From assembly GCA_965116155.1 (NCBI GenBank), contig OZ220488.1, forward strand, positions 977,103 to 1,041,102: a DNA stretch of 64,000 nucleotides. The letters run 5' to 3'. Positions within the stretch are counted from its first letter, which is position 1. Each line of letters begins with the position of its first letter. Under the pieces are notes generated by a model. It did not search any database, was not told where the DNA came from, and worked only from the letters and a program-made list of their open reading frames with translations. Shown piece by piece: positions 2-63,643 of this stretch. A program made the translations under genes and the position numbers. The stretch is from Bdellovibrionales bacterium (lineage in GTDB: Bacteria; Bdellovibrionota; Bdellovibrionia; Bdellovibrionales; UBA1609).

Positions 2-520
2 ATTATTGCCAACATGCGCAAAGGCGTTCTGGATGTCGTGGTGTTGCCGGACCTCAAAACAGAGTTCGGCCTGAGCTTAGATAAATACAGCTCGCGCTTT
101 ATGTTTGAAGACGAAATGTGGCTCGTGGGCTCCTCTAAGGACATTACCATGCCCGATCATATTGAAGGGCTCAAAAATTTGTTCTCTCGACCTGTCGCGT
201 CTCTCATACAGTCGTATCCGAGCTTTCACCGCTTGCTTGAGAGCGAGCTGCGCCGTCACCCTGCTAATGCGGATAAGAGACCGGTTTTTGAGACCGACAA
301 TGTGGGTACGTTAAAGCGTGTGATTGAGTCCGGCCTGGGGTGGGGCTTTGTGCCTGCCCACTCGGTGCGTAAACAGGTGCGCACGCGGCGCCTGACCCGT
401 GTGTCTGTGGACGATCTTAAATACAGTGTGAACATCAACCTGTACTGGCTTAAAAACGACGACGTCAGCCAAAAGGCCGACACTTTTTACCGCGCTGTGC
501 ACCAACAAACCCTAGGTTAG
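2..520 (+). CDS. LysR-family transcriptional regulator, C-terminal effector-binding part (5' end outside window)
   Basis: The frame stays open to the window edge. The sequence ...FETDNVGTLKRVIESGLGWGFVPAHSVRKQV... resembles a LysR substrate-binding domain. The TAG stop at 518-520 lies in TTAG/GTGCGTAAGCAT repeat sequence. Confidence 0.6.
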   Translation: MIANMRKGVLDVVVLPDLKTEFGLSLDKYSSRFMFEDEMWLVGSSKDITMPDHIEGLKNLFSRPVASLIQSYPSFHRLLESELRRHPANADKRPVFETDNVGTLKRVIESGLGWGFVPAHSVRKQVRTRRLTRVSVDDLKYSVNINLYWLKNDDVSQKADTFYRAVHQQTLG

Positions 521-614
521 GTGCGTAAGCATCAGAACGTTAGTTAGCAGCGGCCTCTCACACCTCTAGGCACGGGAGATGCGCTTTGTGCCTGTGCATG
601 GTAGGTTCTCCCTC

Positions 615-704
615 GGAGAGGTGGCTGAGCGGTTGAAAGCACCGGTCTTGAAAACCGGCGGGCCTTTGCGGGCCTCGAGGGTTCGAATCCCTCCCTCTCC
701 GCCA
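615..704 (+). tRNA. tRNA-Ser (anticodon UGA)
   Basis: Cloverleaf read by eye. Acceptor stem GGAGAGG/CCTCTCC, anticodon loop CTTGAAA, long variable arm CGGGCCTTTGCGGGCCTCG, T arm GAGGGTTCGAATCCCTC, discriminator G plus encoded CCA. Confidence 0.9.
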
Positions 705-706
705 AG

Positions 707-895
707 TTAGAGTGCTAGCTGCGTAAGCATCAGAGCGCTAGTAAAATTCTCTGAGGTAGAGTGGCGGCACACTGATAGCCCCAACGGGGCGGCCATCAGG
801 GTGCCAAGCTTGTATCAGAGAATTTTGCGGCCTATGAAGCTTCTACGAGCCTGTGGCCTTGGGTGCTCTCTAGGCCCAAGGCGACCAGATTGCCG
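707..895. repeat. Mosaic hairpin-repeat array starting 2 nt after the tRNA-Ser CCA
   Basis: TTAGAGTGCTAG + CTGCGTAAGCATCAGAGCGCTAG + AAAATTCTCTGAGG...CTGATAGCCCC-loop-GGGGCGGCCATCAG...TCAGAGAATTTT + GGCCTTGGG...CCCAAGGC. The same modules recur at 10991-11394 and elsewhere. Boundaries approximate. Confidence 0.85.
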
Positions 896-936
896 CAAAA
901 GGGATGGAGCACGTAAGTGTAAATTAAGGAGAGGTT

Positions 937-1626
937 ATGAAAAAACAACTCACCTGGGTCGCTTTGGGAACACTGACCTGCGTAGCGGTGTACTGGGGCT
1001 TTTGGCACACGACACGCTCTTGGCAGGAGGCGGAGTATTTTTTAGACCCTGCGCAAGAACGAGGGCTGGCAGCACAAAGCGCCACCCACATTAAAAAGCA
1101 TTCAAAAAGTGCGGCCAGCGTAGATAATTTATCTAAAGGGCTCAGTTGGGTGCGCACCAGGCCAGGCTACCTAGGGGTACGCTTAAAGCATCCGGTACTA
1201 GAAGTAGCCGGTGGGCAAAAAGCTTATGCCTGCGATGTATACACTTCTATAAGCTTAGAGTTTTTGTCTGAAGGGGTTTATGTATCGGGAGACCCCTCTA
1301 AAATGACGGCCAAAGGACCTTGCAAAAGCACTAAAGACAACCAACATATCGAAACCCTGTGGCTGCCGTTGGGAGAGGTGTTTAAAAAACCGCGCCGAGA
1401 CCTCGCCAATTATGTGTCTGCAGGAGAAAAAACCACCGTCTCCCTAAGCAACATAGGCCATACCTGGCCCAAGTCCTGGGTGCTAAGTGGGGTGGAGTTT
1501 TTACGCAACCCCACCCCGGGGCCACGCAAACCCACAGACACCATGAGTAACGCAAAACCCATCCGCATTGGCTTAAAAGGCCTGCGCAACCCTCAAGGCC
1601 TAGCCCCTGTGTTTCAATACGATTAG
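937..1626 (+). CDS. hypothetical membrane-anchored/secreted protein
   Basis: ATG preceded by AAGGAGAGG. N-terminal hydrophobic segment VALGTLTCVAVYWGFW. No family recognised. The TAG stop is the TAG of a TTAGAGCGCTAG repeat terminus. Confidence 0.6.
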   Translation: MKKQLTWVALGTLTCVAVYWGFWHTTRSWQEAEYFLDPAQERGLAAQSATHIKKHSKSAASVDNLSKGLSWVRTRPGYLGVRLKHPVLEVAGGQKAYACDVYTSISLEFLSEGVYVSGDPSKMTAKGPCKSTKDNQHIETLWLPLGEVFKKPRRDLANYVSAGEKTTVSLSNIGHTWPKSWVLSGVEFLRNPTPGPRKPTDTMSNAKPIRIGLKGLRNPQGLAPVFQYD

Positions 1627-1735
1627 AGCGCTAGGAAAATGCCCTGGGACTAAGCGCAGTCTCTAGCGCAGCCCCCTTTAGGGGGTGTCCGCGATAGAGA
1701 CAAGCGTCCCACAGAATTTTGGGCTAGCACTCTAA
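1623..1735. repeat. Compact complete repeat element (113 bp) with TTAGAGCGCTAG / CTAGCACTCTAA inverted termini
   Basis: It fills the whole gap between two convergent genes and supplies both stop codons (1624-1626 TAG; 1732-1734 CTA = TAG on minus). The interior is nested hairpins (GGGAC...GTCCC, GCAGCCCCC TTTA GGGGGTGTCCGC). Confidence 0.85.
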
Positions 1736-5141: not shown

Positions 5142-5653
5142 GTGCGTAAGCATTAGAGTGTTAGAAAAATGCCATGTGGGACGCTGTGTGGTATCCTTGT
5201 CTTTGACGATAATGTGGCAAATGAGGTCACGTTTCATTCACTTGCTTCGAGCAAACCCTGACACAGGCGACAATATTTGCCTCGATCTAGAATATCCTCA
5301 CTTCAGGTACGCACTTAGACCCCATTTGCAGGGCCATAAAGAGCTGTCTAGTGCACAAAAATGCCTCAGGCCGAACCACTTGTCCCGTAAGGATAAAAGC
5401 GCCAGCAAAAACACTTTGATCAGAGACGCAGACACATTGGCAGCCCCTGCAAGGGGCGCCAGCCAAGGTGGCAAGCGAGGCTCCCATTTAAAGTGTTTTT
5501 GCGCGCTAGACAGCCCTCAACGCGCCGATAGCTTTGGACGATCTGTAGGTCCAAAGCGTACACACTCTCGTAGATGACCCGCTTCTCGCGGCGCTATCAG
5601 GTAGACGGCGTAGGGCTGAGGACATTTTTGCTGGCACTTTTATGCTCGCGCTA
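5139..5653. repeat. Mosaic hairpin-repeat array between convergent genes (stop to stop)
   Basis: Contains GTGCGTAAGCATTAGAGTGTTAG, a long-hairpin module (5216-5351), CAGCCCCTGCAAGGGGCGCCAGCCAAGGTGG, GCTTTGGACGATCTGTAGGTCCAAAGC and TTTTTGCTGGCACTTTTATGCT. All have homologs elsewhere in the window. Confidence 0.85.
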
Positions 5654-8509: not shown

Positions 8510-8559
8510 GGATAGCACATGACCTTGTAAAAGGATCGGACAAAAGTGGCCAGTAGCTC

Positions 8560-9148
8560 AAGGTGTCCATGGCGTTAAGATAATCTGGCAGGTCAGGTCA
8601 CGTCTGGGTGTATCGCGATCCATACAGCCTTGCCCTAGGCGACAGCGCTACCCTCAATTTACATAAATTGCACTTGCGGGTACGGGCTTGGACCTAACCT
8701 GCAGGGCCATAGATAGCTGTCTAGCGCGCAAAAATGCTTAACCTAGTGCGCCACCGCTTTGCTTCAGAGAATTTTACTAGCACTCTGATTGTATTTACCC
8801 GAACGCACGGAGCTTTGACGGCAGTCTGGTCGCCTTGTGCCTAACGATCGCACAAGGCTACAGGCTCATAGTAGCTTCATAGGTCGCAAAATTCTCTGTA
8901 AGACGCTTGGCACCCTGATGGCCGCCCCTTCACAGGGGCTATCAGGATGCCGGCGTGAGCTATCCAGCACGTGAGGGTGCCCTGGAATAGCCGCTTGCCT
9001 TGCACACCTTTAGGTGTGTCAGCAGGCTGCGCTCTCTGGCCAGGGCACCCTCACTAACACTTTTATGCTTACGCACTTAGCTTCAGAGAATTTTACTAGC
9101 ACTCTGATGCTTACGCACTTTGTCCCAGGGCATTTTCCTAGCGCTCTA
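8560..9148. repeat. Mosaic hairpin-repeat array
   Basis: Long-hairpin module at 8585-8723, a short-hairpin module (GCCTTGTGC...GCACAAGGC), a reverse-oriented AAAATTCTCTG...CAGAGAATTTT module with extra DNA inside it (8956-9080), and a CTAGCGCTCTAA terminus supplying the stop of the next gene. Confidence 0.85.
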
Positions 9149-10972
9149 ATGATTGCATGTAGCTGTGCCGTTGGGAGAAACGTGCCAACCACCTGCGGGC
9201 GGATGAGAGCCAGGGAGCCGATTGGATTTCCCCAGATCATCCTCGCGGCTGTCACCACTACCATCATCACCACCAGCAAAGCCATTTAAATGCGCTTGCA
9301 AAAGCGAACGCTCTAAAACGCCCCCGCCCGACACAGCACCTAAAGCCACACCCGGCATGCCAGGCTTCGTAAATACACCCGTCAAACTAGAACCCGTGCC
9401 CGTATTATCATTACCACCATACACGCACCTAAAGGCCTCAATGTCACTGGAATGCAAGCCCTTTTTCTCACCCACACTAATACTAGGGTACATAATACTA
9501 TCCGGGTCATCACTATGCCCCATACCCAAAGCATGACCCAACTCGTGCAGCATCACAGTACGAAAATGATACCTAATAGCACTAACAGTTTCGCCAAAAT
9601 CAAACCAATTGGTCACGGCGCTCAAGGAGCTAGTAGCATACACGCGCCCTTGGTCGATAATACCAATGTCCACATCGCTAATCAAAAACTTCTCATAGCA
9701 AAGCGTTTTAGTCCTATCTCTACAAACGGAAGGAAAAGCCATATAAGCCGTAGCTAACGCTCCGCGGGTTGAGCGCACATTGTAGTATGCATCTGGAATG
9801 ACCTTAATTACATTGATCCCATCTGACTCAGTAAATCTCTCATACCTTGCAGAACTCAATTTAAACACGCGGTCCCAAGAAGATATGCCCTCTACAGCAT
9901 CGTTCCACACCTGCATTACATGCTCTAGGTCTGCCTTCATTTCATCAGTAATGTTTTCATGCAAACGAAACAACAATCTATTTCGTATACGAAGAGGCCC
10001 TAAAGAAAACCGCGTATTAAAACCACACGAAGCAATTGGATAAATATCCGGATCTTTGGGGCTGGTTTTTTTAAACCTCTTTACAAAAGCATCGTAATGC
10101 AAACGACGCTTAACCTCATGCAAACCCCTTAGTGAGCTGGATGGGTCCCAAAGCAAATTTACATTGTTTGCTGACTTAAAGCTCCACTCTGACCAATCGG
10201 GAAACAAAAAATCATTCGCCCCATAAAACATCCCATCCATAAGACGCACATTTTCTACATAACTTGGTTTGGGCACACTCACAAAACCCAGCTTAGGAGT
10301 GTTGTAAAAAGCTGCAGTTAAGTCCACCCACTGCATATCGCCTAAGCTCTTAACTGCTACCAGTTTGTTGTTGTCTTTGCTATTTTTCCAGTGTGGTGAA
10401 TTTGCTAATAAACCACCCCAAGCCTGCAACCTGCCCCTAATACGCACCTCGTAAAACCCTGGGCTTTTATACGTATGCCGAGCTGAAGAAAGCGCTCTGC
10501 GACTTGTAATATGCTGAATTTTAGTCCCATCACCCCAATCTACATAAAAATCGTAAGCATCTGGCAATTCTAATTGACTCAAGTGAGCCGCTTCACGAAG
10601 CGGCAGTCTGAGGGTTAAAGAATCCGCAGGAATGTCCCACAAGGTAACAAAAGAGCTCTTATACTCGGCGCGCCCTTCTAAACGCTGCACCTTGTTTAGT
10701 TTATCGCCTTCGCCGCTTGAAGCTGCTAAAGCCGCCATGTCTAATTTGCGCATCTGTTGCAAGCAGAGCAAATGCTCCCCAGCACTGCCACAAGCCTTTA
10801 AGCTCGCAGTGTCCGAGTCATCGTCATCGTCATTATCGTCGTCGTTGTCATCGTCGTCGTCGTCTGGATTGTTTACAGATGTGCCCGGCCCAGCATTAAA
10901 AGACTCGCAGGCGGCAAAAAACAATAAAAGGCCCATAAGAGCCAACAGGATCAAAAACCGGCTGCTTTTCAC
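9146..10972 (-). CDS. lipoprotein with DUF285/BspA-like N-terminal region and matrixin-type (M10 metzincin) zinc protease domain
   Basis: GTG start. Lipobox LLFFAAC. Poly-Asp/Asn linker. YDFYVDWGDGT...HTYKSPGFYEVRIRG motif. HELGHALGMGHS zinc motif with SIMYP Met-turn. Paralog of 11693-13339. Confidence 0.8.
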   Translation of the reverse strand: MKSSRFLILLALMGLLLFFAACESFNAGPGTSVNNPDDDDDDNDDDNDDDDDSDTASLKACGSAGEHLLCLQQMRKLDMAALAASSGEGDKLNKVQRLEGRAEYKSSFVTLWDIPADSLTLRLPLREAAHLSQLELPDAYDFYVDWGDGTKIQHITSRRALSSARHTYKSPGFYEVRIRGRLQAWGGLLANSPHWKNSKDNNKLVAVKSLGDMQWVDLTAAFYNTPKLGFVSVPKPSYVENVRLMDGMFYGANDFLFPDWSEWSFKSANNVNLLWDPSSSLRGLHEVKRRLHYDAFVKRFKKTSPKDPDIYPIASCGFNTRFSLGPLRIRNRLLFRLHENITDEMKADLEHVMQVWNDAVEGISSWDRVFKLSSARYERFTESDGINVIKVIPDAYYNVRSTRGALATAYMAFPSVCRDRTKTLCYEKFLISDVDIGIIDQGRVYATSSLSAVTNWFDFGETVSAIRYHFRTVMLHELGHALGMGHSDDPDSIMYPSISVGEKKGLHSSDIEAFRCVYGGNDNTGTGSSLTGVFTKPGMPGVALGAVSGGGVLERSLLQAHLNGFAGGDDGSGDSREDDLGKSNRLPGSHPPAGGWHVSPNGTATCNH

Positions 10973-10990
10973 AAAAGGCTTGTCGGCAAA

Positions 10991-11394
10991 TTAGAGCGCT
11001 AGTAAAATTCTCTGAGGCACAGAGCGGCGGCACACTGATAGCCCCTCAAAGAGGGGCAGCCATCAGGGTGCCAAGCTTGTATCAGAGAATTTTGCGGCCT
11101 ATAAGAGATCTATGGCCCTGTAGCCTTGGACGATCTTTAGGTCCAAGGCGACCACACTTTCGTCACAGCCCCGTGCATTGAGCAAAAACAAATTAGAGCG
11201 CTAGTAAAATTCTCTGAGGCACAGAGCGGCAGCACACTGATAGCCCCTCAAAGAGGGGCGGCCATCAGGGTGCCAAGCTTGTATCAGAGAATTTTGCGGC
11301 CTATAAGAGATCTATGGCCCTGTAGCCTTGGACGATCTTTAGGTCCAAGGCGACCACACTTTCGTCACAGCCCCGTGCATTGAGCAAAAACCAA
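10991..11394. repeat. Tandem duplication, 2 x 202 bp, of a composite repeat unit
   Basis: Units 10991-11192 and 11193-11394 differ at about 3 positions. Each unit is TTAGAGCGCTAG-AAAATTCTCTGAGG hairpin-GGCCTATAAG-short hairpin GCCTTGGAC...GTCCAAGGC-tail. Confidence 0.95.
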
Positions 11395-51686: not shown

Positions 51687-51871
51687 GTCACCCCACTCAC
51701 ATAAACACCCGCACCATAAAGGCCGGAACAGGCGCATTAATTACACCCTACATTATATGCTTCGAGAGAATTGACGCGCCACGCCGCAAGGCCCGTGCGC
51801 CTACAAAAGCCCAGGGGTCAAAGGACTAGCTGGGGGAGATTTTTGTACCTTGGTCGATAAGAGCCTGGCGC

Positions 51872-54061: not shown

Positions 54062-55861
54062 GTGACGGATTCCATAATACAGCACCACTCTACTTTTGTA
54101 CTCATGTGTGCCGGCATAGCAGCGTTTTTGTATGGCATGGGGCTTGTAAGCTCGAACCTTAAAAAACTCACAGCCAACCGCACAAAAGACCTTTTGCAAA
54201 ATCTGAGCAAACGTCCCCTTTGGGGTTGTGCAGTAGGGGCATTGCTTTCGGCCCTTATGCAGAGTGCAGGAGCGGTGAACACCATGCTAGTAGGCCTTGC
54301 CCAGGCTAGGGTGGTGAGCCTAAAGCAGGTCATCGGCGTGGTGCTAGGTGCCTCGGTGGGCAGCACTCTGACGGTGCAGCTGATCTCTTTGCAAGTTTAT
54401 CACTATGGGCTGGGGATTTTTGCCATAAGTTTTGCAGGGATGTTTTTTGCTAAGAAAATGCTCCTTAAAAGTAGCTGTCACGCGGCCATGGGAGTGGGGC
54501 TTTTGTTTATGGGCCTTGAGTGGATCAGCTTTAGCAGCATGGCGCTTAAACAGTCGCCGTTGTTTTTAAGCGCACTGGAGCAGCTATCGCATATGCCCTG
54601 GGCTGCCATGTTGGCTATGGCGGCTTTTTCGGCTTTGGCGCAATCGGCAACAGCGGGCTTAGGGCTTACGATCTCTTTTGCTACGGCGGGTGTTATTAAT
54701 TTTGAGCAAGCTCTTTACTGGGTGTATGGAGCCAATATTGGATCTACTGCTACGGCCCTTATGGCAGCTATTGGAGGCACAGCCGCTGCACGCCAAGTGG
54801 CTTGGTCGAACTGTGCTTTTAAAATCTGCTGCGTTGGGGTGTTTTACTTTTTAACTCCTTATGTTGCTGGATTTGTGCCTGGCTCTACTCCGCAGCGTTT
54901 AGTAGCTAATGCCCATACTTTGTTTAATCTTTTGGGTGTGTGCATGGCGCTACCCATAAGCCACTGGGTGGTGGGTTGGCTAGAGCGTAGTATTGGGCCT
55001 TCGGCAGCAGAGCGTAAATTTGATGTGCAATTTTTAAACAAGCCGCACTTTAACTCACTGCCTGTTAGGTTAACCCATGCGCGCCGCGAGGCCCTGCGCA
55101 CAGCGGATGTGTTTTTGTCGGTGCTAGATGATGCTATTTTGTTAATTCAAAACGAAAACACCGAGCTATGGTCTAGTGTAAAAAAACGCGTCAGGCATAT
55201 TGATTTTTTAAGTCTCGAGGTGAGTCGGTTTTTGGCTCGTGTTGCCCATAAGGCGCCCCCTCCCTTGGATACAGAGGTGATAAACGTTGTAGCCTTTGTG
55301 ACGGATGTTAAAAATGCCGCCAGTGTTATAGACAAACAACTGCGGGGCCAGGCGAAAAAAAAGCACAAACTCAAGCTTAATTTTCATGCGCAAAGTTTTA
55401 GCGAAATCCGCCGGCTCCACAAAGAAAGCCTCAACCTGTGCACTTTGTCTTTTAGTGCTTTTCAAAACTCCTTGCAAAGCCATGCTACGCACGAGCAGGC
55501 CATGCAGATTATGCGTCTTAAACGGCATATTAAAAAGTTCGAAGCCACTTTTAGGGTGCAGCATCTTAAGCGCGTGGCGGAGGGCAAAGAGCACTCTTCT
55601 GTAAGCCCGATGTATTTTGATATCATCACCAGCTTTCGCAAAATTTCCGGCCTGCTCAGCAACCACCTTAAGCCCTTACAGACTAGCCCAATATTCTGGG
55701 ATAAAGCGGCGGCGCGAGAGCAGCACCCTCAAAAGGGTGCGCCCGCGATGGCGCCAAGCGTCCCGCAGAATATTGGGCGGTCTATGCAGCAATCTATGGC
55801 CCTGCAGGTTAGACCTAAGCCCGTACCCGCAAGTGCAATTGATATTAACCAAGGCCAATAA
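54062..55861 (+). CDS. Na/Pi cotransporter family protein with PhoU-like C-terminal region
   Basis: Polytopic N-terminal half (QSAGAVNTMLVGLA, QSATAGLGLTISFA repeats) and a helical PhoU-like half. Roughly the last 60 codons (from ~55677) are read from repeat DNA, so the native C-terminus is uncertain. Confidence 0.8.
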   Translation: MTDSIIQHHSTFVLMCAGIAAFLYGMGLVSSNLKKLTANRTKDLLQNLSKRPLWGCAVGALLSALMQSAGAVNTMLVGLAQARVVSLKQVIGVVLGASVGSTLTVQLISLQVYHYGLGIFAISFAGMFFAKKMLLKSSCHAAMGVGLLFMGLEWISFSSMALKQSPLFLSALEQLSHMPWAAMLAMAAFSALAQSATAGLGLTISFATAGVINFEQALYWVYGANIGSTATALMAAIGGTAAARQVAWSNCAFKICCVGVFYFLTPYVAGFVPGSTPQRLVANAHTLFNLLGVCMALPISHWVVGWLERSIGPSAAERKFDVQFLNKPHFNSLPVRLTHARREALRTADVFLSVLDDAILLIQNENTELWSSVKKRVRHIDFLSLEVSRFLARVAHKAPPPLDTEVINVVAFVTDVKNAASVIDKQLRGQAKKKHKLKLNFHAQSFSEIRRLHKESLNLCTLSFSAFQNSLQSHATHEQAMQIMRLKRHIKKFEATFRVQHLKRVAEGKEHSSVSPMYFDIITSFRKISGLLSNHLKPLQTSPIFWDKAAAREQHPQKGAPAMAPSVPQNIGRSMQQSMALQVRPKPVPASAIDINQGQ

Positions 55862-56035
55862 TCACGCCTGCAACTGAACCTTATTAATCATATAAAACCA
55901 AGGCGTGGTCTGACCTGCCAGATTGCCTTAACGCCATGAACACCTGGAGTATGCAGCGCAGCCACCCTGACAGCCTCCTTTAGGAGGCGAGCACTCAGGA
56001 GTGGCAAACGGAATGTTATCAAGGTGTTTGGGGGA
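55677..56035. repeat. Mosaic hairpin-repeat array overlapping the 3' end of the Na/Pi cotransporter ORF
   Basis: TTACAGACTAGCCCAATATTCTGGGA...TCCCGCAGAATATTGGGCGG hairpin, reverse-oriented long-hairpin module (55794-55921), GCAGCCTCC TTTA GGAGGCGAGC hairpin, and CAAGGTGTTTGG. Confidence 0.85.
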
Positions 56036-56048
56036 ATTCCATTAAGCA

Positions 56049-56258
56049 CTAGACGGCTCGGGCGGATTTTTTTGCGTGGACCCAGCTGTGCTTTTTGCGC
56101 TTATCCCATACTGTCACTATGAACAAAGCCCTACCATTCGAACCAAAAGCTATAACCACAACGTAGTAATTTGTGTGCAGCCTGTATCGATAGCTGCCCC
56201 TTGTCAGCTCACCGGGCTCATTTAAAATATATTGATCCTTTTTCGCGCATGATGTTCG
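56049..56258 (-). pseudogene. possible remnant of a small RelE/ParE-like toxin gene (no start codon)
   Basis: A 69-codon open frame lacking ATG/GTG/TTG: ...ELTRGSYRYRLHTNYYVVVIAFGSNGRALFIVTVWDKRKKHS... The R-G-x-Y-R-x-x pattern followed by a beta-strand-like block is only loosely RelE-like. Confidence 0.2.
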
Positions 56259-56401
56259 CTACAAGCTTTCTTGCGCTCTAAATTAACAATACACTGCCGC
56301 AAGAATAAAGCATGCTTTATCCTGCAATCTCACGTCTCACCATGTCCCGCTGGCAGGGGCCAAAGGGCCCGGATCCCAGTGGGACCAATAACGGCCAACA
56401 A

Positions 56402-56450
56402 CACTGCCGCAAGAATAAAGGATATTTTATCCTTTATTCTTGCGGCAGTG
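56402..56450 (-). terminator. Perfect 23-bp stem / 3-nt loop hairpin overlapping the stop codon of 56434-57750
   Basis: CACTGCCGCAAGAATAAAGGATA ttt TATCCTTTATTCTTGCGGCAGTG. On the minus strand it is followed by TTGTTGG, a weak U-tract. A direct copy of the 19-mer lies at 56292-56310. Confidence 0.4.
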
Positions 56451-57750
56451 GTATGACGGGAGGCAAGCCCAAGCCTTTGGCGGGAGGGTATTCGGGACGG
56501 CGACGGTTTCGGGGGTTGCATTTGGGGTCTTTGTTGGGGTCACAAGGCACACGCCCATCGGTGCGCCTTTTTACAGGCGGTGCAGGCGACACGCTGTCCA
56601 CCATGCCGCGTGTCATTTTATCGACGATGCGTTTCATGCTTGTGGTTTCAGCTTTTTCTACCATCCCCGGCAGTTGGTCTGTGCCTAAAATAATCCCTCC
56701 ACTCGCATGCACCTCTAAACCTGTTGCGGCATCGCGCAAAGCAAAGCCCCCCAGCTCCACCGCCGTGCTGGCGTAGAAAAAATCCACCCCCGTCACTCCT
56801 CCAGGCAAATCCTTATTCACCAAGACTCCTGCTTTATAGCTAGCCGTGCGGCCTTTTAAAGCATGGGTCGCCGCGGCTCCCAGCATTAAGCCTTTAAATT
56901 GATCAGGCGAGTTGAAGTTCTTGCCCCCCCAAATGAGTCCACCACCCAAGCGCAGGCGGTTTTTGGATTTCGCATTATCTACACGCGCACCATAACTCAC
57001 TCCAGGTGAAGTCCACAGCACTAAACTGGTGCGCATATTCCAGCCCGAGCTCATCTCGTGAGGCGGGAACTTGTTGATCCTTTGCACCCACACCGGCATA
57101 AATACCACGCCCAGACTTACACTTACACCAGCGCCCAAGCGGGGCCTGAACACTTTGGTTAAAGCGTTTAGCGCCATGGTGTAGCTTTTTTTCGACTGCG
57201 CCTCATTAGACTTCCACCCCAAAAAAAGCATAAACGCATCGGGAGCCAAAAGCTTGGCGCGGGTTTTGTTTTCTGCCAGCTGCATGCTAAGAGCATCGGC
57301 CTCAAAGAGCTCATTCAGCTCGCGGCAACGCTCGGCAATAATTTGCACCCCCTTTAGCACTTCGCGAAAAGCAAGCCGATTTTTAGGAAAACCCTTCACC
57401 AAGGGAGTGCGAACGTTGGTGGGCTCCCCATCCGCTTCGCCATCTTGCTCATCGCCATCTGAGGACTGGGAGTTTGGGGAGGCAAGCGCATCTTGGTTAG
57501 GCACCCAGTACATAGGCGGCGTACCATCGTCGTATTCAGCAAAGATAATATCCTGCAAACTCAGCGCAGCGGACTCCATCATCTTTTTAAATCTGGCATC
57601 ATCGCGCAGAATATACTGCCCCCAGGGCACAACCTGATACACATACTGGCTGTCTTGCAAAAGCTCCACTCCCCACGCACCCCAACCCCAAGGAGCAAAG
57701 TAAGCAAACAAAGCCAAAACCACAATCCGCAAACGCAAAACAAACAACAT
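56434..57750 (-). CDS. hypothetical secreted/membrane protein
   Basis: 438 aa with an N-terminal hydrophobic segment, an acidic stretch, Gly-rich beta-like C-terminal two-thirds and a basic Pro-rich tail. No family recognised. Confidence 0.55.
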   Translation of the reverse strand: MLFVLRLRIVVLALFAYFAPWGWGAWGVELLQDSQYVYQVVPWGQYILRDDARFKKMMESAALSLQDIIFAEYDDGTPPMYWVPNQDALASPNSQSSDGDEQDGEADGEPTNVRTPLVKGFPKNRLAFREVLKGVQIIAERCRELNELFEADALSMQLAENKTRAKLLAPDAFMLFLGWKSNEAQSKKSYTMALNALTKVFRPRLGAGVSVSLGVVFMPVWVQRINKFPPHEMSSGWNMRTSLVLWTSPGVSYGARVDNAKSKNRLRLGGGLIWGGKNFNSPDQFKGLMLGAAATHALKGRTASYKAGVLVNKDLPGGVTGVDFFYASTAVELGGFALRDAATGLEVHASGGIILGTDQLPGMVEKAETTSMKRIVDKMTRGMVDSVSPAPPVKRRTDGRVPCDPNKDPKCNPRNRRRPEYPPAKGLGLPPVIPLPQE

Positions 57751-57889
57751 AGAGCTTGGTTAGAGCACAAAAAACCCTCAGACGTCATGTGTTGTGAGCC
57801 TACAGGGCTTTGATGCCATGCGGCTATCGCTCTCCTCGAGCGCCATCCTAAGGGACAAAAAGGCATAGTACGTGGTAAGTTGCAGGACC

Positions 57890-59491
57890 ATGAGGCCCAT
57901 AATAGCCTGCGCACTTTTATTGGTTTGCTCTTTTGCTGCCGAAAGCCCTGCCGAGAGCCCTGCCACTTTATTGCGGCCCTTAAAACTTGAAAGCCCTAGA
58001 GACACCTTTAAAAGCTACATTACGGCCATGCAGGCCTATAGGGCCGCGCACGCAGCCGGCAAAAACACCCTGGCCTTGTCGGAGCTCGACAAAGCGGCGC
58101 GCAGTTTTAATTTGGAGCATTTGCCGGTTTTAACGCGGCGCGAGAGCGGCCGCACGGGTGCACGCCTACTGCAAGAGGTGCTCGACCGGGTAATACGCGT
58201 GGATTTGAGCCGCGTGCCAGACGACCCAAGCTTGAGCCGGTGGCGCCTTAAGGACACCGATATTGTGATTCAAAAAGAGCTTTCCGGCGATGATGCGGGG
58301 AGGTTTTTGTTTTCTCAAAACACCGTTCAGCAGCTAAGGGATTTTTACGAGCGGGTTAAGCATTTGCCTTATTTGGAAGACACGGGTGGTGGGGCGCACT
58401 ATCGTGAGCCTTGGCAGCGGGAGTATATTCCTGCTTGGGCCCAGAGCACTATGTGGGGCGTGCCTTTGTGGAAGTATTTGGGGCTGCTTTTGGGAGTTTT
58501 TTTGGGGCTCGTGCTTAAAAGGCTTCTTGTATCTTTGCTGCGTGCTATTCGGGGTGGGGTTTTGCCTCGCATCCCGGGGCCAAAGCAGTACGCGTATCAG
58601 ATGTGGGAGGCCTTGGAGCGGCCTATGGGCTTGGTGGGGGCGAGTGCTTTTTGGTTTGCTTGTGTGCAGGCTATGCATTTTGAGGGCAAGTTGCTGAGCT
58701 TTTTAGTAAGTGCTGTGCAAATATCTTTAAGCGTGGCGGTTATTGGGGGTGCTTATAGGTTGGTGGGAGTGTTGCAGGTGTATTTGCAAAAATTGGCTCA
58801 GCTTACGCAATCGGATCTCGATGACCACATGGTGCCTTTGGTGACGCGCAGTTTGCGGATTTTTTTGGTTTTAGTGGGTAGTTTGTTTGCTTTGCAAAAT
58901 TTGGGGTTTAATATTTTGTCTCTTTTGGCGGGTTTGGGTTTGGGGGGGTTGGCTTTTGCTTTGGCGGCCAAAGACACGGTAGCAAATGTGTTTGGTTCTT
59001 TGATGATCATAATAGACCAGCCTTTTCGAATGGGTGATTGGATCCGTACGCCTTCTGTTGAGGGTACGGTGGAGCATATTGGTTTTCGCTCTACACGGGT
59101 GCGTACGTTTTATCAGTCTGTGGTGTCTATACCCAACTCTAGCTTGGCTAATGAAAACATCGACAACATGGGACTGCGGCCCATGCGGCGGGTAAAGGGA
59201 ACTATTGGTTTGGTGTACTCTACTCCTACTAGTAAGATTCAGGAGTTTGTAGAGGGGGTGCGGGAGATTATTAGCTCGCACCCTCAAACAGATCATAGTA
59301 ATTACCATGTGTATTTTAATAATTATGGCGCTTCTAGTTTGGATGTTATGTTGTATTTTTTCTTGCAGGTGCCAGACTGGAGCGAGGAGCTAAAGCAAAA
59401 GGGCGTTATATACTCGCAGATTCTCGACCTTGCCAAAAAACTAAACGTACAGTTCGCCTTCCCTTCCAGAAGTATATATATGCAAAATTAG
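57890..59491 (+). CDS. mechanosensitive ion channel (MscS family)
   Basis: Signal-like N-terminus, several TM helices, then the MscS core (LAAKDTVANVFGSLMIIIDQPFRMGDWI...GTVEHIGFRSTRVRT). The TAG stop lies in TTAGAGCGCTAG. Confidence 0.8.
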   Translation: MRPIIACALLLVCSFAAESPAESPATLLRPLKLESPRDTFKSYITAMQAYRAAHAAGKNTLALSELDKAARSFNLEHLPVLTRRESGRTGARLLQEVLDRVIRVDLSRVPDDPSLSRWRLKDTDIVIQKELSGDDAGRFLFSQNTVQQLRDFYERVKHLPYLEDTGGGAHYREPWQREYIPAWAQSTMWGVPLWKYLGLLLGVFLGLVLKRLLVSLLRAIRGGVLPRIPGPKQYAYQMWEALERPMGLVGASAFWFACVQAMHFEGKLLSFLVSAVQISLSVAVIGGAYRLVGVLQVYLQKLAQLTQSDLDDHMVPLVTRSLRIFLVLVGSLFALQNLGFNILSLLAGLGLGGLAFALAAKDTVANVFGSLMIIIDQPFRMGDWIRTPSVEGTVEHIGFRSTRVRTFYQSVVSIPNSSLANENIDNMGLRPMRRVKGTIGLVYSTPTSKIQEFVEGVREIISSHPQTDHSNYHVYFNNYGASSLDVMLYFFLQVPDWSEELKQKGVIYSQILDLAKKLNVQFAFPSRSIYMQN

Positions 59492-59650
59492 AGCGCTAGC
59501 TGCGTAAGCATAAAGGCAATAGCAAAAATGTAGCCCACACGAATTACCCACCTTGGTAGCGTAATGTTTTTTCTTTCCCCCATAACAGCCCCTTTTAAAG
59601 CCTTTTTGTTTTAGTTTTTTAATTAAAAAATGCCCCAAAGGCGCGCGGGC

Positions 59651-60583
59651 TTAGGCTTTTAGTTTTGAAACCTCGTCTTGAGAGAGACCTGTTACCTCTG
59701 AAATCACAGAAAGCTTTAGCCCCTTTTTAAGCATATTTGCAGCCACCGCCACGCGTTCCTCTGCACGGCCTTCTTTTCGACCCGCCTCTTTCCATGGGTT
59801 GCCCATATTTTGCTCCCAAGCTTCAAAATATTCCTTTCTTGCCGCACCACTTGACTTTAACACACTCATCACCTCCTCATGGTCTATCCCACAAACGCTC
59901 GAAACATAAGTTACCACATGCTGCATCAGGTTTGTACTGTCATTGTCATCCAAATGGCCGAAAATTTGCCTAAAAAATTCACGCCTTTCTCTTCCTGCCA
60001 TATCACCAAACTGTTGCACCTTCAAAAGCGCGTACAAAATAGAATAAAGTGCATCCTTAGGCGGCCATAAAGGTTGGTCTAGGCGCTCAAGATCAAGTAC
60101 ATGGAACTGCAATAAAATGGAGTCTATGCTTTCTGCCTCAATATCGTGCATTACAATACCAAGCCCTGGTTTATGCCCCCTCTGCCACGAATCTCTGCCA
60201 TGGTAAAAAATGCAATTCAATACAATAGGGCGCTCCTTTTGAGGCTTAGATAACTCAAAATGCTTTATGGCTACTCCATAATCAGCCATTTGCCGGTACG
60301 TTTTTTTAGGATCGCGTTGATGCTTGTGTTCTAATAAGATATAAATTGGCCTAGTGTTTTTAAGCTTTCCTAGTAATAGCAAGTCTGCTTCTTTGCCTAT
60401 AGTAGGCAAAGAAGCATCCTGCTTAACCAGGCCTTTAATGTCCAACACCTCCTGCACGCTTTGAGGCAGCCAAAATTTTAGCAGCGCCCTCGTATAACCC
60501 TTATCCTTAAAACAACTCCGGAAGAAACGATCATGCGTGTTGGTGTAGTGTGTGTTTAAACTTGCTTTTCTTTCTGGTGCCAT
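59651..60583 (-). CDS. Rpn/YhgA-like PD-(D/E)XK recombination-promoting nuclease (putative transposase family)
   Basis: N-terminal HDRFFRSCF...LLKFWLP...EADLLLLGKL...IYILLEHKHQ pattern, typical of the Rpn/transposase_31 family. Confidence 0.7.
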   Translation of the reverse strand: MAPERKASLNTHYTNTHDRFFRSCFKDKGYTRALLKFWLPQSVQEVLDIKGLVKQDASLPTIGKEADLLLLGKLKNTRPIYILLEHKHQRDPKKTYRQMADYGVAIKHFELSKPQKERPIVLNCIFYHGRDSWQRGHKPGLGIVMHDIEAESIDSILLQFHVLDLERLDQPLWPPKDALYSILYALLKVQQFGDMAGRERREFFRQIFGHLDDNDSTNLMQHVVTYVSSVCGIDHEEVMSVLKSSGAARKEYFEAWEQNMGNPWKEAGRKEGRAEERVAVAANMLKKGLKLSVISEVTGLSQDEVSKLKA

Positions 60584-60845
60584 AATTTATTTTTCTTATC
60601 CTTTGCCGTGCCGTAAAAAAACCCCAATACCCAAGGGTGATATTGGACCGTAGTTTTTTACCAAATCAAACCCGCAAAACACTTTGCGCCATGCGTGCAT
60701 ATATGTAAAGCCACGACACGCCGTGCAAAGATCAAAAATGACGAAAAACGGGGGAGCCGCCATGCGCTTAAAGCAACTGCCGGCCCAGCACCTCCTAGGA
60801 ACATTGGGCTAGTCCTTTGCATGGGGGGAGCTGCCAAATTGATAC

Positions 60846-61080
60846 AGTGTGTGCCGGCTTAATTTTGGGGCGGCAAAGGGCCGATAGGGCATGCATGGAA
60901 GCGGTACGGTGTAGCGGAAGACACAAAAAGAACTTTCTTTCTTGCGTAAGCATAAAAGTGGACCCTTTACACCTTGGGTGGGTAGTGCAGTCACCTGCAT
61001 CCCTTTGGGGTGCTAAGCAGGTGACAAACGAAAAACCCCAAGGTGTAAAGGGGGAACTAGACAGCTATCAACGCGCCGGT
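60846..61080. repeat. Mosaic hairpin-repeat array
   Basis: GTGTGTGCCGGCTTAATTTTGGGGCGGCAAAGGGCCGATAG (homolog at 63296-63340). GCGTAAGCATAAAAGTGG + CTTTACACCTTGGG...CCCCAAGGTGTAAAG hairpin (homolog at 19186-19320), ending AACGCGCCGGT. Confidence 0.8.
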
Positions 61081-61088
61081 AGAAAAAA

Positions 61089-61128
<40 letters not shown>

Positions 61129-61211
61129 AAAGGGCTAGCGCGGTCACCTTAAGCAGCGCAAGCAAAGTTCGCCTGGTAAATAAAAAAAACCCACGACTTA
61201 TAAGATACTCT

Positions 61212-61320
61212 GGTAGCTTTGGGTGGTCAGTAGGCCCAAAGCGTTCAGACTCTCTTTAAAAGCACTGGGAGGCTGCTCTAGGAGCGCCGCTTATCCCAGA
61301 ATTTTGGACTAACACTCTAA
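61212..61320. repeat. Hairpin-repeat module ending 20 nt before an ankyrin start codon
   Basis: GGTAGCTTTGGGTGGTCAGTAGGCCCAAAGCG...CCCAGAATTTTGGACTAACACTCTAA. Same module as 41273-41380 and 63534-63643. Confidence 0.85.
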
Positions 61321-61340
61321 CTTGTTAAAGGAAACCCACC

Positions 61341-62420
61341 ATGAGCAACCTAACGCTTAATATGTGTACAATAATATTAAGCTTAACTTTTGCAACAAAT
61401 GCCTTTGCCAACGAGGAAGAGGAGGCTAATTTCTGGGCTGATCGCCTTGTCAAGGCCGTCAAGGAGAACAGCCTTAGACGAGTGAAATACTATGTTGAAA
61501 AAAAAGGAGTCCACCCAGATACGCCTGGTACCCTCTATATACATAATAGTGAGATTCCAGCAACGGCCCTAACATTAGCAGCAAGGCAAGGCAACACAGA
61601 CATAGTTGCATATCTTTTAGCTAATGGCGCCAATGTTGACATCAGAAAAAAATCCTCTGGCGAGACACCCCTTATGCGGGCATCATACGCCGCCACTCAG
61701 GAAAAGCAAATAGATAATGCCGCCGCCACTATAAAGCTCTTACTAGCAAAAGGCGCTGATATAAACGCCACTGACAAGCATGGCTACACTGCACTTATGA
61801 GAGCCGCAGAGAACCCCCTATGTGCCTACAACAAAGAGGATGGAACAAAGCCTTGTCATGAATCAAAAATGCTCAAGTTTCTGCTTGAAAATGGCGCTGA
61901 CGTTAATAAAAAAAATAACAAAGGCATCACCGCAATCGACATGGTAGAAAACAGCTACCATTGGAACCAATGGGAAACTCCCAATGAAGACCTACGACTT
62001 CTACTTAAGTACAAGAAGAAGTACAAGGAGTGTGCAGATTGTCGCAAACAACAAGCAAAAGGACTCCGCATGTTGTGTCCAAAGGGGTGCCGGTCATCTA
62101 GTTCCACAAGTACTGCACAAGGTCAGGCGGCCCACTGTGGCGCTCGCTACGATGATCAAGGATGTAGGGTGGTACGAAAGCAGTGTGTAGATGATGTTTG
62201 GTCATGTGAATCATGGAAGAAAGAAATACAACAGAAATGCCAAAAGGCTGAAGACTTGCCACAAAGATGTAAGACTGAAGATACAGTTCGTGTCCAACAA
62301 CAAGGTCAGACGCACAGCCACCACAGATGTCCAAAATGTAACCACATATGCTACCCTGGCGACAGTGCGCACAGTGCTCCAAGCTCGCGATCAGCACAAG
62401 GCGCAAGACGCGCGCAGTAA
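61341..62420 (+). CDS. secreted ankyrin-repeat protein with Cys-rich C-terminal region
   Basis: Signal peptide MCTIILSLTFATNAFA. Several ANK units (TALTLAARQGNTDIVAYLLANGANV, GYTALMRAAE...). The C-terminal ~130 aa has many Cys pairs (CADC, CPKGC, CPKC). The C-terminal reading frame was not independently verified. Confidence 0.7.
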   Translation: MSNLTLNMCTIILSLTFATNAFANEEEEANFWADRLVKAVKENSLRRVKYYVEKKGVHPDTPGTLYIHNSEIPATALTLAARQGNTDIVAYLLANGANVDIRKKSSGETPLMRASYAATQEKQIDNAAATIKLLLAKGADINATDKHGYTALMRAAENPLCAYNKEDGTKPCHESKMLKFLLENGADVNKKNNKGITAIDMVENSYHWNQWETPNEDLRLLLKYKKKYKECADCRKQQAKGLRMLCPKGCRSSSSTSTAQGQAAHCGARYDDQGCRVVRKQCVDDVWSCESWKKEIQQKCQKAEDLPQRCKTEDTVRVQQQGQTHSHHRCPKCNHICYPGDSAHSAPSSRSAQGARRAQ

Positions 62421-62620
62421 CTCTGAAGATTCTTTCACTTTCAGCCTGGCGCCCCTGGCGCCAGGTATGTGGTGGTTTGGCAGCGGACACAAAACGCCTG
62501 CTAATCACGCAACCAATAGTTTGGCTTGCATTTTTTAGCAAGCGGCGGCATAATAGTAGGTGATCGTTTCGAAATTATGGCCCCCTTGACTTGGCCCTTG
62601 GCCCTCATGGGGGTTTTTTT

Positions 62621-63223
62621 ATGTCTCAAACTAGAACAACCATTTTTTATTTTGACGCTCAAAACCTTTATAGAATGGCCCAGACCGTCTTTGCAGACGT
62701 TAAATACCCTAACTTTGATCCCATTGCCTTATCACAGTTGATCGCCAAAAAATACTTCTTGAAAATACAAACGATAAAATTTTATACAGGCATTCCATAC
62801 AAAAGAAGAAGCCCTCACTGGCACAATTTTTGGAGCAAAAAATTGGCTGCCCTGGGAAAAAACCAGCTCGTGGAGATCTTTACACGAAAAATACAACCAA
62901 GAACAAAAAACATATTACTTAATGGCGTGACACATCAAATAAAATTTGATGTTGAAAAAGGCATCGACACAAGAATAACAATTGATATTGTCAGAGACGC
63001 ATTAGATCAAAAATCCGAAGCCATTGTTATTTTTAGCGCAGACCAAGACCTTGCAGAGGCGGTAGCAGAAGTAAAAAAAATTGCGCACTCACAAAAAAGA
63101 TATATTACTATATTCTCTGCTTCACCTCGTTTTAAAAATATAACAGGCATTGCTGGATCTAAATGGATTCAAATAAAAGAAGCAGACTACAACCAATGCC
63201 TTGACTACAGGGACTACCGATAG
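62621..63223 (+). CDS. NYN/LabA-like domain protein (predicted RNase fold)
   Basis: Start trimmed to ATG 62621. FYFDAQNLY ... GIDTRITIDIV ... IVIFSADQDLAEAV fits the NYN (DUF88) acidic-residue pattern. AT-rich by eye. Confidence 0.65.
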   Translation: MSQTRTTIFYFDAQNLYRMAQTVFADVKYPNFDPIALSQLIAKKYFLKIQTIKFYTGIPYKRRSPHWHNFWSKKLAALGKNQLVEIFTRKIQPRTKNILLNGVTHQIKFDVEKGIDTRITIDIVRDALDQKSEAIVIFSADQDLAEAVAEVKKIAHSQKRYITIFSASPRFKNITGIAGSKWIQIKEADYNQCLDYRDYR

Positions 63224-63294
63224 ACGAAATCAAGAGGCTCAAGAAAACCTAGCATGGGACATGCTTCCTTCAAGTCCGCCTTGAAGATAAGGCA

Positions 63295-63643
63295 GTGTGT
63301 GCGGGCTTAAAGTTGAGGCAGCAAAGGGCCGAAAGATCACACAAGGCTACAGGCTCATAGATGCCGTATAGACTGCAAAATTCTCTGCGGGACGCTTGGT
63401 CCGTAAGGATTAGAGTGTTAGCCACATGCTCTGGGCCAAGCGCAGTCTGCCTGATAGTCCCTGCAAGGGACGACCATCAGGTAGACAAGTGCCCCACAGA
63501 GCATGTGGCGGCCTATAAGGCTAACAACGCGCCGGTAGCTTTGGGTGGTCAGTAGGCCCAAAGCGTTCAGACTCTCTTTACAAGCACTGGGAGGCTGCTC
63601 TACCGCCGCCGCTCTACCTCAGAGAATTTTACTAGCGCCCTAA
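63295..63643. repeat. Mosaic hairpin-repeat array ending 20 nt before an ankyrin start codon
   Basis: Short hairpin, AAAATTCTCTGCGGGAC, TTAGAGTGTTAGCCACATGCTCTGGG...CCCACAGAGCATGTGG hairpin, GGCCTATAAGG, AACGCGCCGGTAGCTTTGGGTGGTCAGTAGGCCCAAAGCG, and ...CAGAGAATTTTACTAGCGCCCTAA. Confidence 0.85.

Follow-up and report, generated by a model that had tools for sequence, protein, structure and literature searches.

The window analysed here (64,000 nucleotides of contig OZ220488.1 in assembly GCA_965116155.1 of a Bdellovibrionales bacterium) is a stretch of ordinary bacterial chromosome, with a GC content of 47-53% across most of its length and a set of housekeeping genes (ung, a gene for an RND permease, dsbD, tsaD, dapA, dapB, tal, htrA, tsp, tmk, holB, secG, a gene for an oligopeptide-type ABC ATPase and agcS). 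Accessory genes are present as well, for three ankyrin-repeat proteins, a Fic protein and an AbiEi/AbiEii pair, together with one IS3-family insertion sequence and a YhgA/Rpn-like gene (PF04754). The closest relatives of the encoded proteins are found in metagenome-assembled genomes of Bdellovibrionota/Oligoflexia and share only 45-52% identity with them. The subject of this study is a family of hairpin-forming repeats that lies between these genes and that in several cases contains the stop codon of the adjacent gene. The analysis is based on the window and on 45 kb of the nearest available relative (stretches L027 and L031, from a 2.5-Mb ENA contig).

Abundance and architecture of the repeats

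The first-pass annotation had described almost all intergenic DNA of the window as a mosaic of nested-hairpin modules (termini T1, T2 and T3, linkers and stems), with about 6 kb or 10% of the window in repeats. The repeats are real: every motif that it named occurs far above the expectation from a dinucleotide shuffle (T1, 14 matches vs 0.02 expected; T2, six vs 0; T3, 12 vs 0.9; CAGGGCCATAGATAGCTG, seven vs 0.01; CTTTGACGGGAGTGT, 16, about nine of which lie inside arrays, vs 1.2; CGGCCTATAAG, six vs 1.1), and self-BLAST marks 7.7 kb of the window as internally repeated. The content of CTAG, which we also considered as a signal, was rejected as only about 2-fold enriched in spacers. With the gene calls used here the intergenic DNA amounts to 9,163 nt, and the repeats, grouped in about 19 arrays, cover 5,728 nt of it (63%, or 8.9% of the window). 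The size tally was therefore right and 'almost all intergenic DNA' too strong. The four spacers listed as free of repeats are indeed so, and the list was incomplete: spacers 51738-51871, 57751-57871, 15889-15947 and 32549-32610 and all short spacers lack repeats as well, spacer 521-614 has T3 and a degenerate T1 only, and in spacers 38459-38730, 45071-45394, 55862-56433, 59492-59650 and 60584-61340 the coverage is only 23-54%.

The apparent vocabulary reduces to one oriented element. The modules are recurrent and hairpin-forming, as had been described, but they are parts of one polar unit and not independent words in varying order: T1, T2 and the form preceded by T3 represent one 5' end in variant form, what had been called 'stems' is the outer helix as it differs between subfamilies, and the 'linkers' comprise the 3' terminus, a linker and a tail. 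The basic unit is a hairpin of about 113 nt including its termini (range 102-120), with 81-98 nt between the ends of the outer helix. It starts with a 5' terminus of the form T[T/C/A]A[G/A/C]AG..YYAG, found as TTAGAGCGCTAG (T1), as TTA[A/C]AGACTAG (T2) or as (A)TAAAAG[C/T]G[C/T]CAG after T3, which is itself an optional mini-hairpin (TGC-GTAA-GCA, compensated to TCC-GTAA-GGA in two copies) ahead of the 5' terminus. The outer helix has 13-16 bp and at least 12 different sequences (subfamilies) in 64 kb; inside it come a conserved 5-nt bulge ((T/A)AAG), a CGC:GCG helix of 3 bp and, on the 3' arm, an AA bulge of 2 nt. A second helix follows, capped by a CCCC-loop-GGGG tip, and 3' of the tip lies another conserved bulge, YGNCC. 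The 3' terminus has the general form C..CTA(T/G)A(A/C)AG and occurs as CGGCCTATAAG, CGGTCTATGCAG, GCGCGCTAGACAG or the mirror form CTAGCGCTCTAA. Most units are continued by a linker (CTATCTATGGCCCTG(T/C)AG, or TCAACGCGCCGGTAG / TCAACGCGCCGG), a second, small hairpin (H2) and a tail. The stem of H2 has 8 bp and covaries, its 11-nt loop (yGrTCnnTAGG) is conserved, and eight distinct perfect-stem copies were found, always 3' of a unit and in the same orientation; some copies have a domain of 113 or about 135 nt in place of H2. Together with the tail of about 45 nt, which contains ACACTCCCGTCAAAG, the full element measures about 200 nt, the period of the tandem repeat at 10987-11412.

The alignment of 21 hand-picked units into one architecture yielded a covariance model, with which 22 units were detected below an E value of 1e-8 and 27 below 1e-3. 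Of these, 15 lie on the plus strand and 12 on the minus strand, in agreement with the earlier observation of both orientations. On the modelled strand the 21 seed units score 54-100 bits and six further matches 24-43 bits; scores on the opposite strand are lower (12-36 bits), so the polarity of the unit is real. The alignment has 92.8% paired cells, against 67% in shuffles and 39-52% in controls with a slid register, and 22 of the 23 base pairs show changes on both sides. The covariation score of 0.70 compares with 0.23 in shuffles, none of 500 of which reached it. Folded as single strands, ten units gave z-scores of -4.5 to -8.9, with none of 200 shuffles folding as well, and the 202-nt element gave a z-score of -6.2. 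Among the unpaired positions of the alignment, conservation is seen in the AG that precedes the outer helix, in the AAGCG bulge, in CAAGCG on the 3' side and in the 3' terminus.

Stop-codon junctions and the origin of the arrays

Repeats were found in all eight convergent spacers, in 10 of about 14 unidirectional spacers longer than 60 nt (a count from the spacer table) and in three of the nine divergent (promoter-only) spacers. Every array has at least one 5' terminus facing outward, 11 arrays have inverted 5' termini at both of their bounds, and in no array does a 3' terminus face a stop codon. At 16 of the 50 coding sequences a terminus overlaps the stop codon or lies at most 3 nt away. Seven genes take their stop from a terminus, as the TAG or TAA of T-TAG-AG or T-TAA-AG, at offset -4 (five were obtained from a pattern scan, and those at 30944 and 36686 from T2 matches, since the scan pattern missed T2 termini). 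For instance, unit 1623-1735 supplies the TAG stops of both its convergent neighbours (open reading frames (ORFs) 937-1626 and 1732-2190), the TAA stop of ORF 30944-31675 lies within a T2 terminus, and unit 36572-36690 supplies the TAA of ORF 36686-38458. Four more ORFs read 24-186 nt into a unit (54062-55861, encoding a Na/Pi-cotransporter, for 186 nt; 50101-50979 for 59 nt; 35877-36605 for 33 nt; 28375-30534 for 24 nt), and their annotated C-termini are thus encoded by repeats, perhaps as an artefact or by remodelling. HtrA can be aligned to its 45%-identical orthologue until two residues from the end, which indicates that the stop inside T1 marks the native C-terminus; in the relative, the htrA orthologue ends in CCT TAA A, a T-TA-A site.

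Integron attC sites are conserved in structure and not in sequence, derive their polarity from extrahelical bases, measure about 60-140 nt and begin at the stop codon of the upstream ORF. The units resemble them in all these respects, and an attC cluster without its integrase was considered for that reason. However, the core sites RYYYAAC ... GTTRRRY are absent (the units end in TTAGAGCGCTAG and in CGGCCTATAAG or CTAGCGCTCTAA), the neighbouring genes are large, have housekeeping roles and lie on both strands, instead of forming a co-oriented row of promoterless cassettes with one site after each ORF, units face both ways and also stand in multi-unit arrays, and there is no integrase gene in the window. 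We rejected this explanation, for want of core sites, as extremely improbable.

The strong bias to gene 3' ends and convergent spacers, with few repeats in promoter-only spacers, could also be understood if the hairpins were primarily functional RNA or DNA structures at 3' ends (mRNA stabilisers, terminators, processing sites or, as has been proposed for REP/BIME, sites for nucleoid proteins), kept by selection and spread mainly by recombination and duplication, not by transposition. In line with this, the structure is kept, with 93% pairing, despite an identity of about 80% between copies, loops and bulges are conserved, canonical terminator-like hairpins are found mainly in unit-free spacers (e.g. 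45078-45122 and 22178-22220), and in the relative the corresponding position 3' of htrA is occupied by an unrelated hairpin of 126 nt. Yet neither strand shows an excess of G:U pairs, about a quarter of the units in unidirectional spacers are antisense to transcription (e.g. those at 10991, 11193 and 49451), divergent spacers hold arrays as well (60942-61320), and the nesting, the half-units and the ORFs that read into units resemble selfish DNA. No T-run is found in the aligned 3' flanks, so the hairpins are not canonical intrinsic terminators, a variant that was rejected; a primarily functional origin in the wider sense we consider unlikely.

Both tandem duplication and the nesting of units within units have enlarged the arrays. 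Identities of 98-100% are found only in local tandem duplications (as detected by Tandem Repeats Finder: 202 bp in 2.1 copies, 98%, and 239 bp in 2.1 copies, 100%). The TAAG bulge of a C-type unit holds a T3-headed unit (8960-9076), and a split unit (5347/5650) encloses unit 5394-5513. Half-units are common, and one and the same 3' domain is joined to differing unit subfamilies, from which it follows that parts were shuffled by recombination or by repeated insertion at fixed junctions. The IS3-family insertion sequence (40001-41272), which has TG...CA ends and a 3-bp target-site duplication (GGT), is located within one composite; its orfA (40941-41210; PF01527) and orfB (40069-40800; rve) are separated by a gap that suggests the usual frameshift arrangement or decay. 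Removal of the insertion sequence restores the junction of CAACGCGCCGG with TAGCTTTGGG, exactly as in the copy at 63525, and the T1-bounded composite of about 240 nt is therefore a real entity, older than the IS3-family insertion. The tandem duplications could in principle represent assembly stutter, but the dispersed copies are only 68-88% identical and are each found in a different spacer between intact genes, the termini overlap stop codons in frame, and one element is interrupted by a separate insertion sequence that has a target-site duplication of its own. The probability of an assembly or chimera artefact was accordingly judged to be next to nil, and this explanation was rejected in view of the diverged copies between intact genes.

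The reading that we favour, with roughly even confidence, is that the repeats form one lineage-specific superfamily of non-autonomous palindromic elements, which a structure-specific enzyme with its gene elsewhere would mobilise in trans. The helices covary freely and the nucleotides of bulges and loops are conserved, which argues for recognition of a folded structure and not of a duplex terminal sequence. The elements would be moved, now or formerly, as folded single strands by an enzyme encoded outside the window that would read the structure and the bulged bases instead of the helix sequence, as in the RAYT/REPIN or IS200/IS605 systems. They would land at T-TA-A/G sites, and when an element with a TA at either end enters the TA of a T-TAA-A stop, the result would be T-TAG-AGC..., in which a stop codon is kept. 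With the stop regenerated as TAG or TAA, insertions at gene 3' ends would be tolerated and would accumulate; the present copies would be old and much rearranged, and any effect of the hairpin in the 3' untranslated region on the mRNA would be secondary.

Several observations weigh against such mobilisation. The dispersed copies have diverged (median identity about 80%) and only tandem copies are near-identical, so there is no sign of recent transposition. No Y1/RAYT, IS200/IS605 or IS630 gene was detected among the 47 ORFs of the window that were scanned (a scan without ORF 11693-13339 and the partial ORF 63659-64000). Units show no strand bias (15 vs 12). When each 5' arm was compared with the reverse complement of its 3' arm, we counted 28 G:T vs 34 A:C mismatches, so the hairpin is equally good on both strands, which gives no support for an RNA of one polarity; an earlier indication of strand-specific RNA structure (37 G:U vs 17 A:C in the model-fitted alignment) was not upheld by this unbiased alignment and was dropped. 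Nothing is specific to a single-stranded intermediate of one polarity. In DNA palindromes compensatory changes can moreover arise without selection, by template switching between the arms (Ripley's quasi-palindrome correction). TA is present at both outer ends, but as part of the conserved TTA...TAA motif, and hence it is inseparable from a target-site duplication; the only clear-cut duplication (GGT) is that of the IS3-family insertion. Finally, the symmetric T1...T1' bounds with TA at each end fit a cut-and-paste transposable element of the miniature inverted-repeat type (MITE) equally well.

The last point leads to the view that the repeats are classical MITEs moved by an IS630/Tc1-mariner DDE transposase, in which T1, T2 and T3 would be terminal inverted repeats bound as duplex DNA, the TA in a TTAA-like AT-rich site would be duplicated, and the hairpin would be a by-product. 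We regard this as possible but doubtful. Eleven arrays and the minimal elements 1623-1735, 36572-36690 and 38489-38582 are bounded by inverted T-TA-...-TA-A termini, the AT-rich flanks (AAT-TA ... TA-ATT) can be read directly in the sequence, the stop context of the orthologous htrA in the relative is T-TAA-A, and a length of 113-245 nt, the lack of coding capacity and the stable folds fit the definition of a MITE (PMC3184786). On the other hand, the outer helix, where the transposase would be expected to bind, is wholly different among the at least 12 subfamilies, and it is the internal bulges that are conserved. With a subterminal helix that differs between subfamilies, many transposase specificities would be needed. 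The termini preceded by T3 (TCAGAG or TAAAAG) lack the TTA form, most units have the non-mirror 3' terminus CGGCCTATAAG, and no IS630-like gene was found in the window.

Two further proposals we rate together as improbable: the repeats may be substrates of an undescribed enzyme (neither RAYT/TnpA-Y1 nor DDE) that would home to TTAA/TTAG stops via the TAAG and AA bulges and the GTAA mini-hairpin, with regeneration of the stop, or the hairpins may have been domesticated by the host genome-wide as the main 3'-end signal for termination or processing. If either were true, about one tenth of a small genome (1.6 Mb or more) of a probably host-associated, deep-branching Bdellovibrionota lineage would consist of a structure-defined repeat system that homes to stop codons.

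Array catalogue and neighbouring genes

The arrays and solitary units are listed in Table 1.

Table 1. Repeat arrays and single units in the window, with their component parts (V1 and V2, large 3' domains)
Position	Strand	Feature	Parts and context
521-545	+	Solo T3 mini-hairpin GTGCGTAAGCAT and degenerate T1	Starts at first base after stop of ORF 14-520
705-905	+	Array downstream of tRNA-Ser	T1 706-717, T3 719-730, unit 730-839, linker, H2 856-882, tail to 905
1623-1735	+	Minimal symmetric element	T1, hairpin, inverted T1; fills whole convergent spacer
5142-5650	.	Composite, outward T3 at left and T3-like terminus at right	T3 5142-5153, T1 5154-5165, large 3'-domain hairpin V1 5217-5329, linker 5329-5346; minus-strand unit split 5347-5393 / 5586-5650, between its halves unit 5394-5513 (+) and H2 5531-5557
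8557-9149	-	Array downstream of ORF 9146-10972	T1 9132-9149 holds the ORF's stop; 5' half-units in series, a T3 after each (9107-9118, 9065-9076), unit 8960-9065, partial unit 8899-8956, H2 8832-8858, tail 8813-8827, short unit 8717-8788, linker 8702-8719, large domain V2 8557-8700
10987-11695	.	Tandem array, 202-bp full-length element x2.1	Units 10991-11106 and 11193-11308, H2 11123-11149 and 11325-11351, half unit 11395-11443, tail 11444-11458, V1 11460-11572, linker 11572-11589; minus-strand unit 11587-11693 abuts stop of ORF 11693-13339
19183-19536	.	Head-out pair in convergent spacer	T3 19183-19194, unit 19193-19305 (+), tail 19350-19364, imperfect H2 ~19369-19395 (read by eye; absent from perfect-stem scan), unit 19412-19525 (-), T3 19525-19536; each T3 1-2 nt from a stop codon
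23704-23874	.	Array	T1 with stop of ORF 23272-23715, weak T2-type unit 23704-23809, inverted C-type half unit, terminal T1 23857-23874 at 1 nt from stop of ORF 23876-25585
27718-28400	.	Array with 239-bp block x2.1 in tandem (27881-28379, 100% identical)	T3 27718-27729, degenerate units; block contains V2, linkers 28042-28059 and 28281-28298, units 28057-28158 and 28296-28400 (-)
30600-30948	-	Array	Tail, H2 30674-30700, linker 30703-30720, units 30718-30832 and 30845-30948
36572-36690	+	Symmetric T2-bounded unit	Fills convergent spacer
38489-38599	+	Short T2-bounded unit, then solo inverted T1	Unit 38489-38582, T1 38588-38599
39845-41383	.	T1-bounded composite of ~245 nt	Split by unrelated IS3-family insertion sequence 40001-41272; unit 39872-39984, linker, H2 41277-41303, tail, inverted half unit whose T1 holds htrA stop
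49451-50160	.	Array with outward T1 at both bounds	Unit 49451-49561 (+), hairpin 49575-49687, tail 49689-49703, degenerate unit, T3 49805-49816, tail, imperfect H2 ~49868-49896 (by eye), units 49924-50039 and 50048-50159 (-)
50922-51110	-	Degenerate T3-headed unit and T2 unit	Units 50922-51005 and 51005-51110; 1 nt from stop of ORF 51111-51737
55675-56046	+	Array	T2 unit 55675-55789, linker 55787-55804, V2 domain, unit 55928-56046
59488-59527	+	Remnant	T1 with TAG stop of ORF 57872-59491, T3, start of Y-type 5' arm; adjoins 3' end of YhgA/Rpn-like gene
60942-61320	.	T3-headed composite in divergent spacer	Unit 60952-61064, linker, ~133-nt insertion including (CTTT)10, H2 61216-61242, tail, inverted half unit with terminal T1
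63293-63643	.	Array	Minus-strand 3' domain and 3' arm, then T1-bounded composite of ~234 nt (63410-63643): unit 63410-63520, H2 63538-63564, tail, inverted half unit with T1 63626-63643

Some of the neighbouring genes deserve attention in their own right. The three ankyrin-repeat genes (45395-47272, 61341-62420 and 63659-64000) and the Fic-domain gene (38731-39831) are found on a 1.6-Mb contig, and the presence of their products together with the insertion sequence and the repeat load suggests a host-associated lifestyle of this Bdellovibrionota-related organism. Two perfect microsatellites, (CTTTT)8 at 45284-45323 and (CTTT)10 at 61089-61128, lie 70-210 nt upstream of ankyrin-repeat genes (starting at 45395 and 61341) and are candidate sites of phase variation by strand slippage in putative host-interaction proteins; the insertion that contains (CTTT)10 is flanked by GGTAG. 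The AbiEii/AbiEi toxin-antitoxin pair (43605-45070) is flanked by 103-bp direct repeats (43506-43608 and 45164-45264; 98% identical) and looks like a small mobile or recombined cassette. The direct repeat holds a CCCC-TTTCA-GGG hairpin, yet it does not match the unit model.

The YhgA/Rpn-like gene (59651-60583, minus strand) encodes a PD-(D/E)XK 'Transposase_31' protein (PF04754, E=2e-17) and has a T1-T3 remnant on its 3' side and a repeat array on its 5' side; this gene and the IS3-family element are the window's only candidates for recombination functions acting in trans, and we found no evidence that ties either to the hairpin units. Two diverged pairs of paralogous genes for secreted proteins or lipoproteins (9146-10972 with 11693-13339, and 36686-38458 with 47247-49421) each share about 67-68% nucleotide identity over 190-336 nt. 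The product of 9146-10972 has a matrixin domain and an Asp/Asn-rich low-complexity stretch, and 36686-38458 and 47247-49421 have TAATTTTGCCGAYA upstream in common, which was discarded as a motif, with only two to three copies, upstream of paralogous genes and not significant. A perfect hairpin with a 23-bp stem (56402-56450), at the 3' end of ORF 56434-57750 and with a third related arm at 56292-56330, does not belong to the repeat family; it may act as a terminator or represent some other small repeat. A sub-threshold Rfam match to the small RNA sX4 (603-769; 50 bits, gathering score 70) was attributed to its overlap with tRNA-Ser.

Comparison with known repeat systems

REP, BIME, REPIN and MITE repeats are known mostly from Proteobacteria, Neisseria, cyanobacteria and Firmicutes, and we know of no description of intergenic palindromic repeats for this deep Bdellovibrionota-related lineage. 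The present family is unusual in its density (63% of the intergenic DNA), in being defined by structure (three covarying helices and conserved bulges in at least 12 subfamilies), in its exact stop-codon junctions and in its assembly into composites bounded by terminal inverted repeats. If mobile, it would offer a clean natural data set on the recognition of folded DNA by a trans-acting enzyme and on the tolerance of insertions at stop codons. In practice, the repeats will break short-read assemblies and mislead gene callers, as in the four ORFs that run into units, and they can be used as a strain-typing marker for the organism.

The claim that the repeats match no known family was supported for the collections that we searched, with the Correia and RPE consensus sequences outside this comparison. 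In Rfam only the two tRNAs of the window reach the gathering threshold and nothing relevant was found at E<=1. The T1 18-mer has 26 single matches, in unrelated taxa, among 185,579 GTDB species genomes, compared with a chance expectation of about 139 by a back-of-envelope estimate, and a 20-mer has three matches in JGI metagenomes, where the similarity never extends beyond 20-26 nt and the one match examined in detail lies inside a glyA coding sequence; the matches of both scans are in line with chance. Plasmids and phages gave no blastn match, nor did 5,426 E. coli genomes for a 731-nt array; E. coli genomes carry REP, BIME and ERIC repeats. Full-text searches of the literature for the motif strings returned only chance matches to unrelated primers. 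The covariance model found no match in the 45 kb of the nearest relative, whose spacers are tight. The relative has unrelated intergenic hairpins of its own, for instance one of 126 nt at the 3' end of the orthologous htrA (L031 11584-11709) and a 98-nt near-perfect palindrome (L031 5721-5816), and a 70-nt element at three gene-upstream sites (L027 7096-7165, L031 2781-2849 and L031 19707-19776).

Among the known systems, the BOX elements of Streptococcus pneumoniae have a modular boxA-boxB(n)-boxC composition, a stable joint fold and an intergenic location (PMC3184786). The window repeats are similar in their modular composition, their stable structures and their intergenic location. They differ in having no known sequence relation to BOX, whose modules are short (45-59 bp) and are not known to fold into a single three-helix hairpin with covarying stems. 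IS200/IS605-derived palindrome-associated elements (PATEs), which go with HUH Y1 transposases, are marked by subterminal hairpins, a lack of inverted termini and of a duplication, oriented insertion 3' of a fixed tetra- or pentanucleotide, and a strand bias. With PATEs the units share a polarity and a bulged hairpin that, by analogy, would be a plausible recognition element, whereas many elements of the window have true inverted termini, the strand count is balanced (15 vs 12) and no TnpA or TnpB gene was found in the window. As a lead and not a test, the variable tetranucleotide 5' of the element (TTAG, TTAC, TTAA, TCAG or TAAA) and the 3' YAG presumably resemble the flank and end cleavage sites of IS608.

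MITEs are defined by a small size (under about 400 bp), terminal inverted repeats that they share with a parent insertion sequence, a flanking target-site duplication, the absence of coding capacity and of a transposase, and a stable fold, and TA motifs flank ERIC-type elements (PMC3184786). Like Correia (CREE) of Neisseria, ERIC, RUP and Nezha, the elements of the window (113-245 nt, no ORF, fold z-scores of -4.5 to -8.9) are in the size range of 100-250 nt, non-coding, intergenic and sometimes fused to the ends of ORFs, with TA at both outer ends of their inverted termini and stable long hairpin folds (PMC3184786). They also have terminal inverted repeats, in the form of inverted T1, T2 or T3, at the bounds of the 11 arrays and three minimal units given above. 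In contrast to MITEs, which have conserved termini and subtermini and near-identical copies, the subterminal helix covaries here, the conserved positions are the internal bulges, the identity is about 80%, and most units have dissimilar 5' and 3' termini.

REP-type repeats occur downstream of coding regions, in the spacers of unidirectional and convergent ORFs and frequently in inverted pairs, and are defined as palindromes of 20-40 bp with an unpaired GTAG or CGTC tag (PMC3733652). The window arrays show the same placement downstream of ORFs (eight of eight convergent and three of nine divergent spacers). As in REP, BIME and REPIN repeats, extragenic palindromes downstream of genes are combined, as inverted units with conserved linkers, into mosaics (PMC3733652, PMC2817692, PMC3116915); the hairpins are imperfect with conserved unpaired bases, a short conserved tag stands beside the stem, subfamilies coexist, and an insertion sequence is located within a repeat. 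Unlike in REP, the hairpins measure 81-98 nt (102-120 nt with termini) and not 20-40 bp, the tag beside the outer helix is mostly CTAG, or else TTAG or CCAG, with GTAG and CGTC absent, and the units have three helices, two conserved bulge motifs, a second hairpin with a tail and an overlap with stop codons. No RAYT gene (Y1, PF01797) was found among the 47 window ORFs scanned. The likeness to BIMEs, which had been noted before, holds for the organisation, with inverted head-out units joined by linker, H2 and tail motifs as alternating palindromic units with conserved extra-palindromic motifs, and not for the enterobacterial PU/REP sequence: the 731-nt array gave no blastn match in the 5,426 E. 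coli genomes. Judged by the collections searched, the repeats are a genuine, previously undescribed family within the known class of intergenic palindromic (REP/BIME/MITE-like) repeats.

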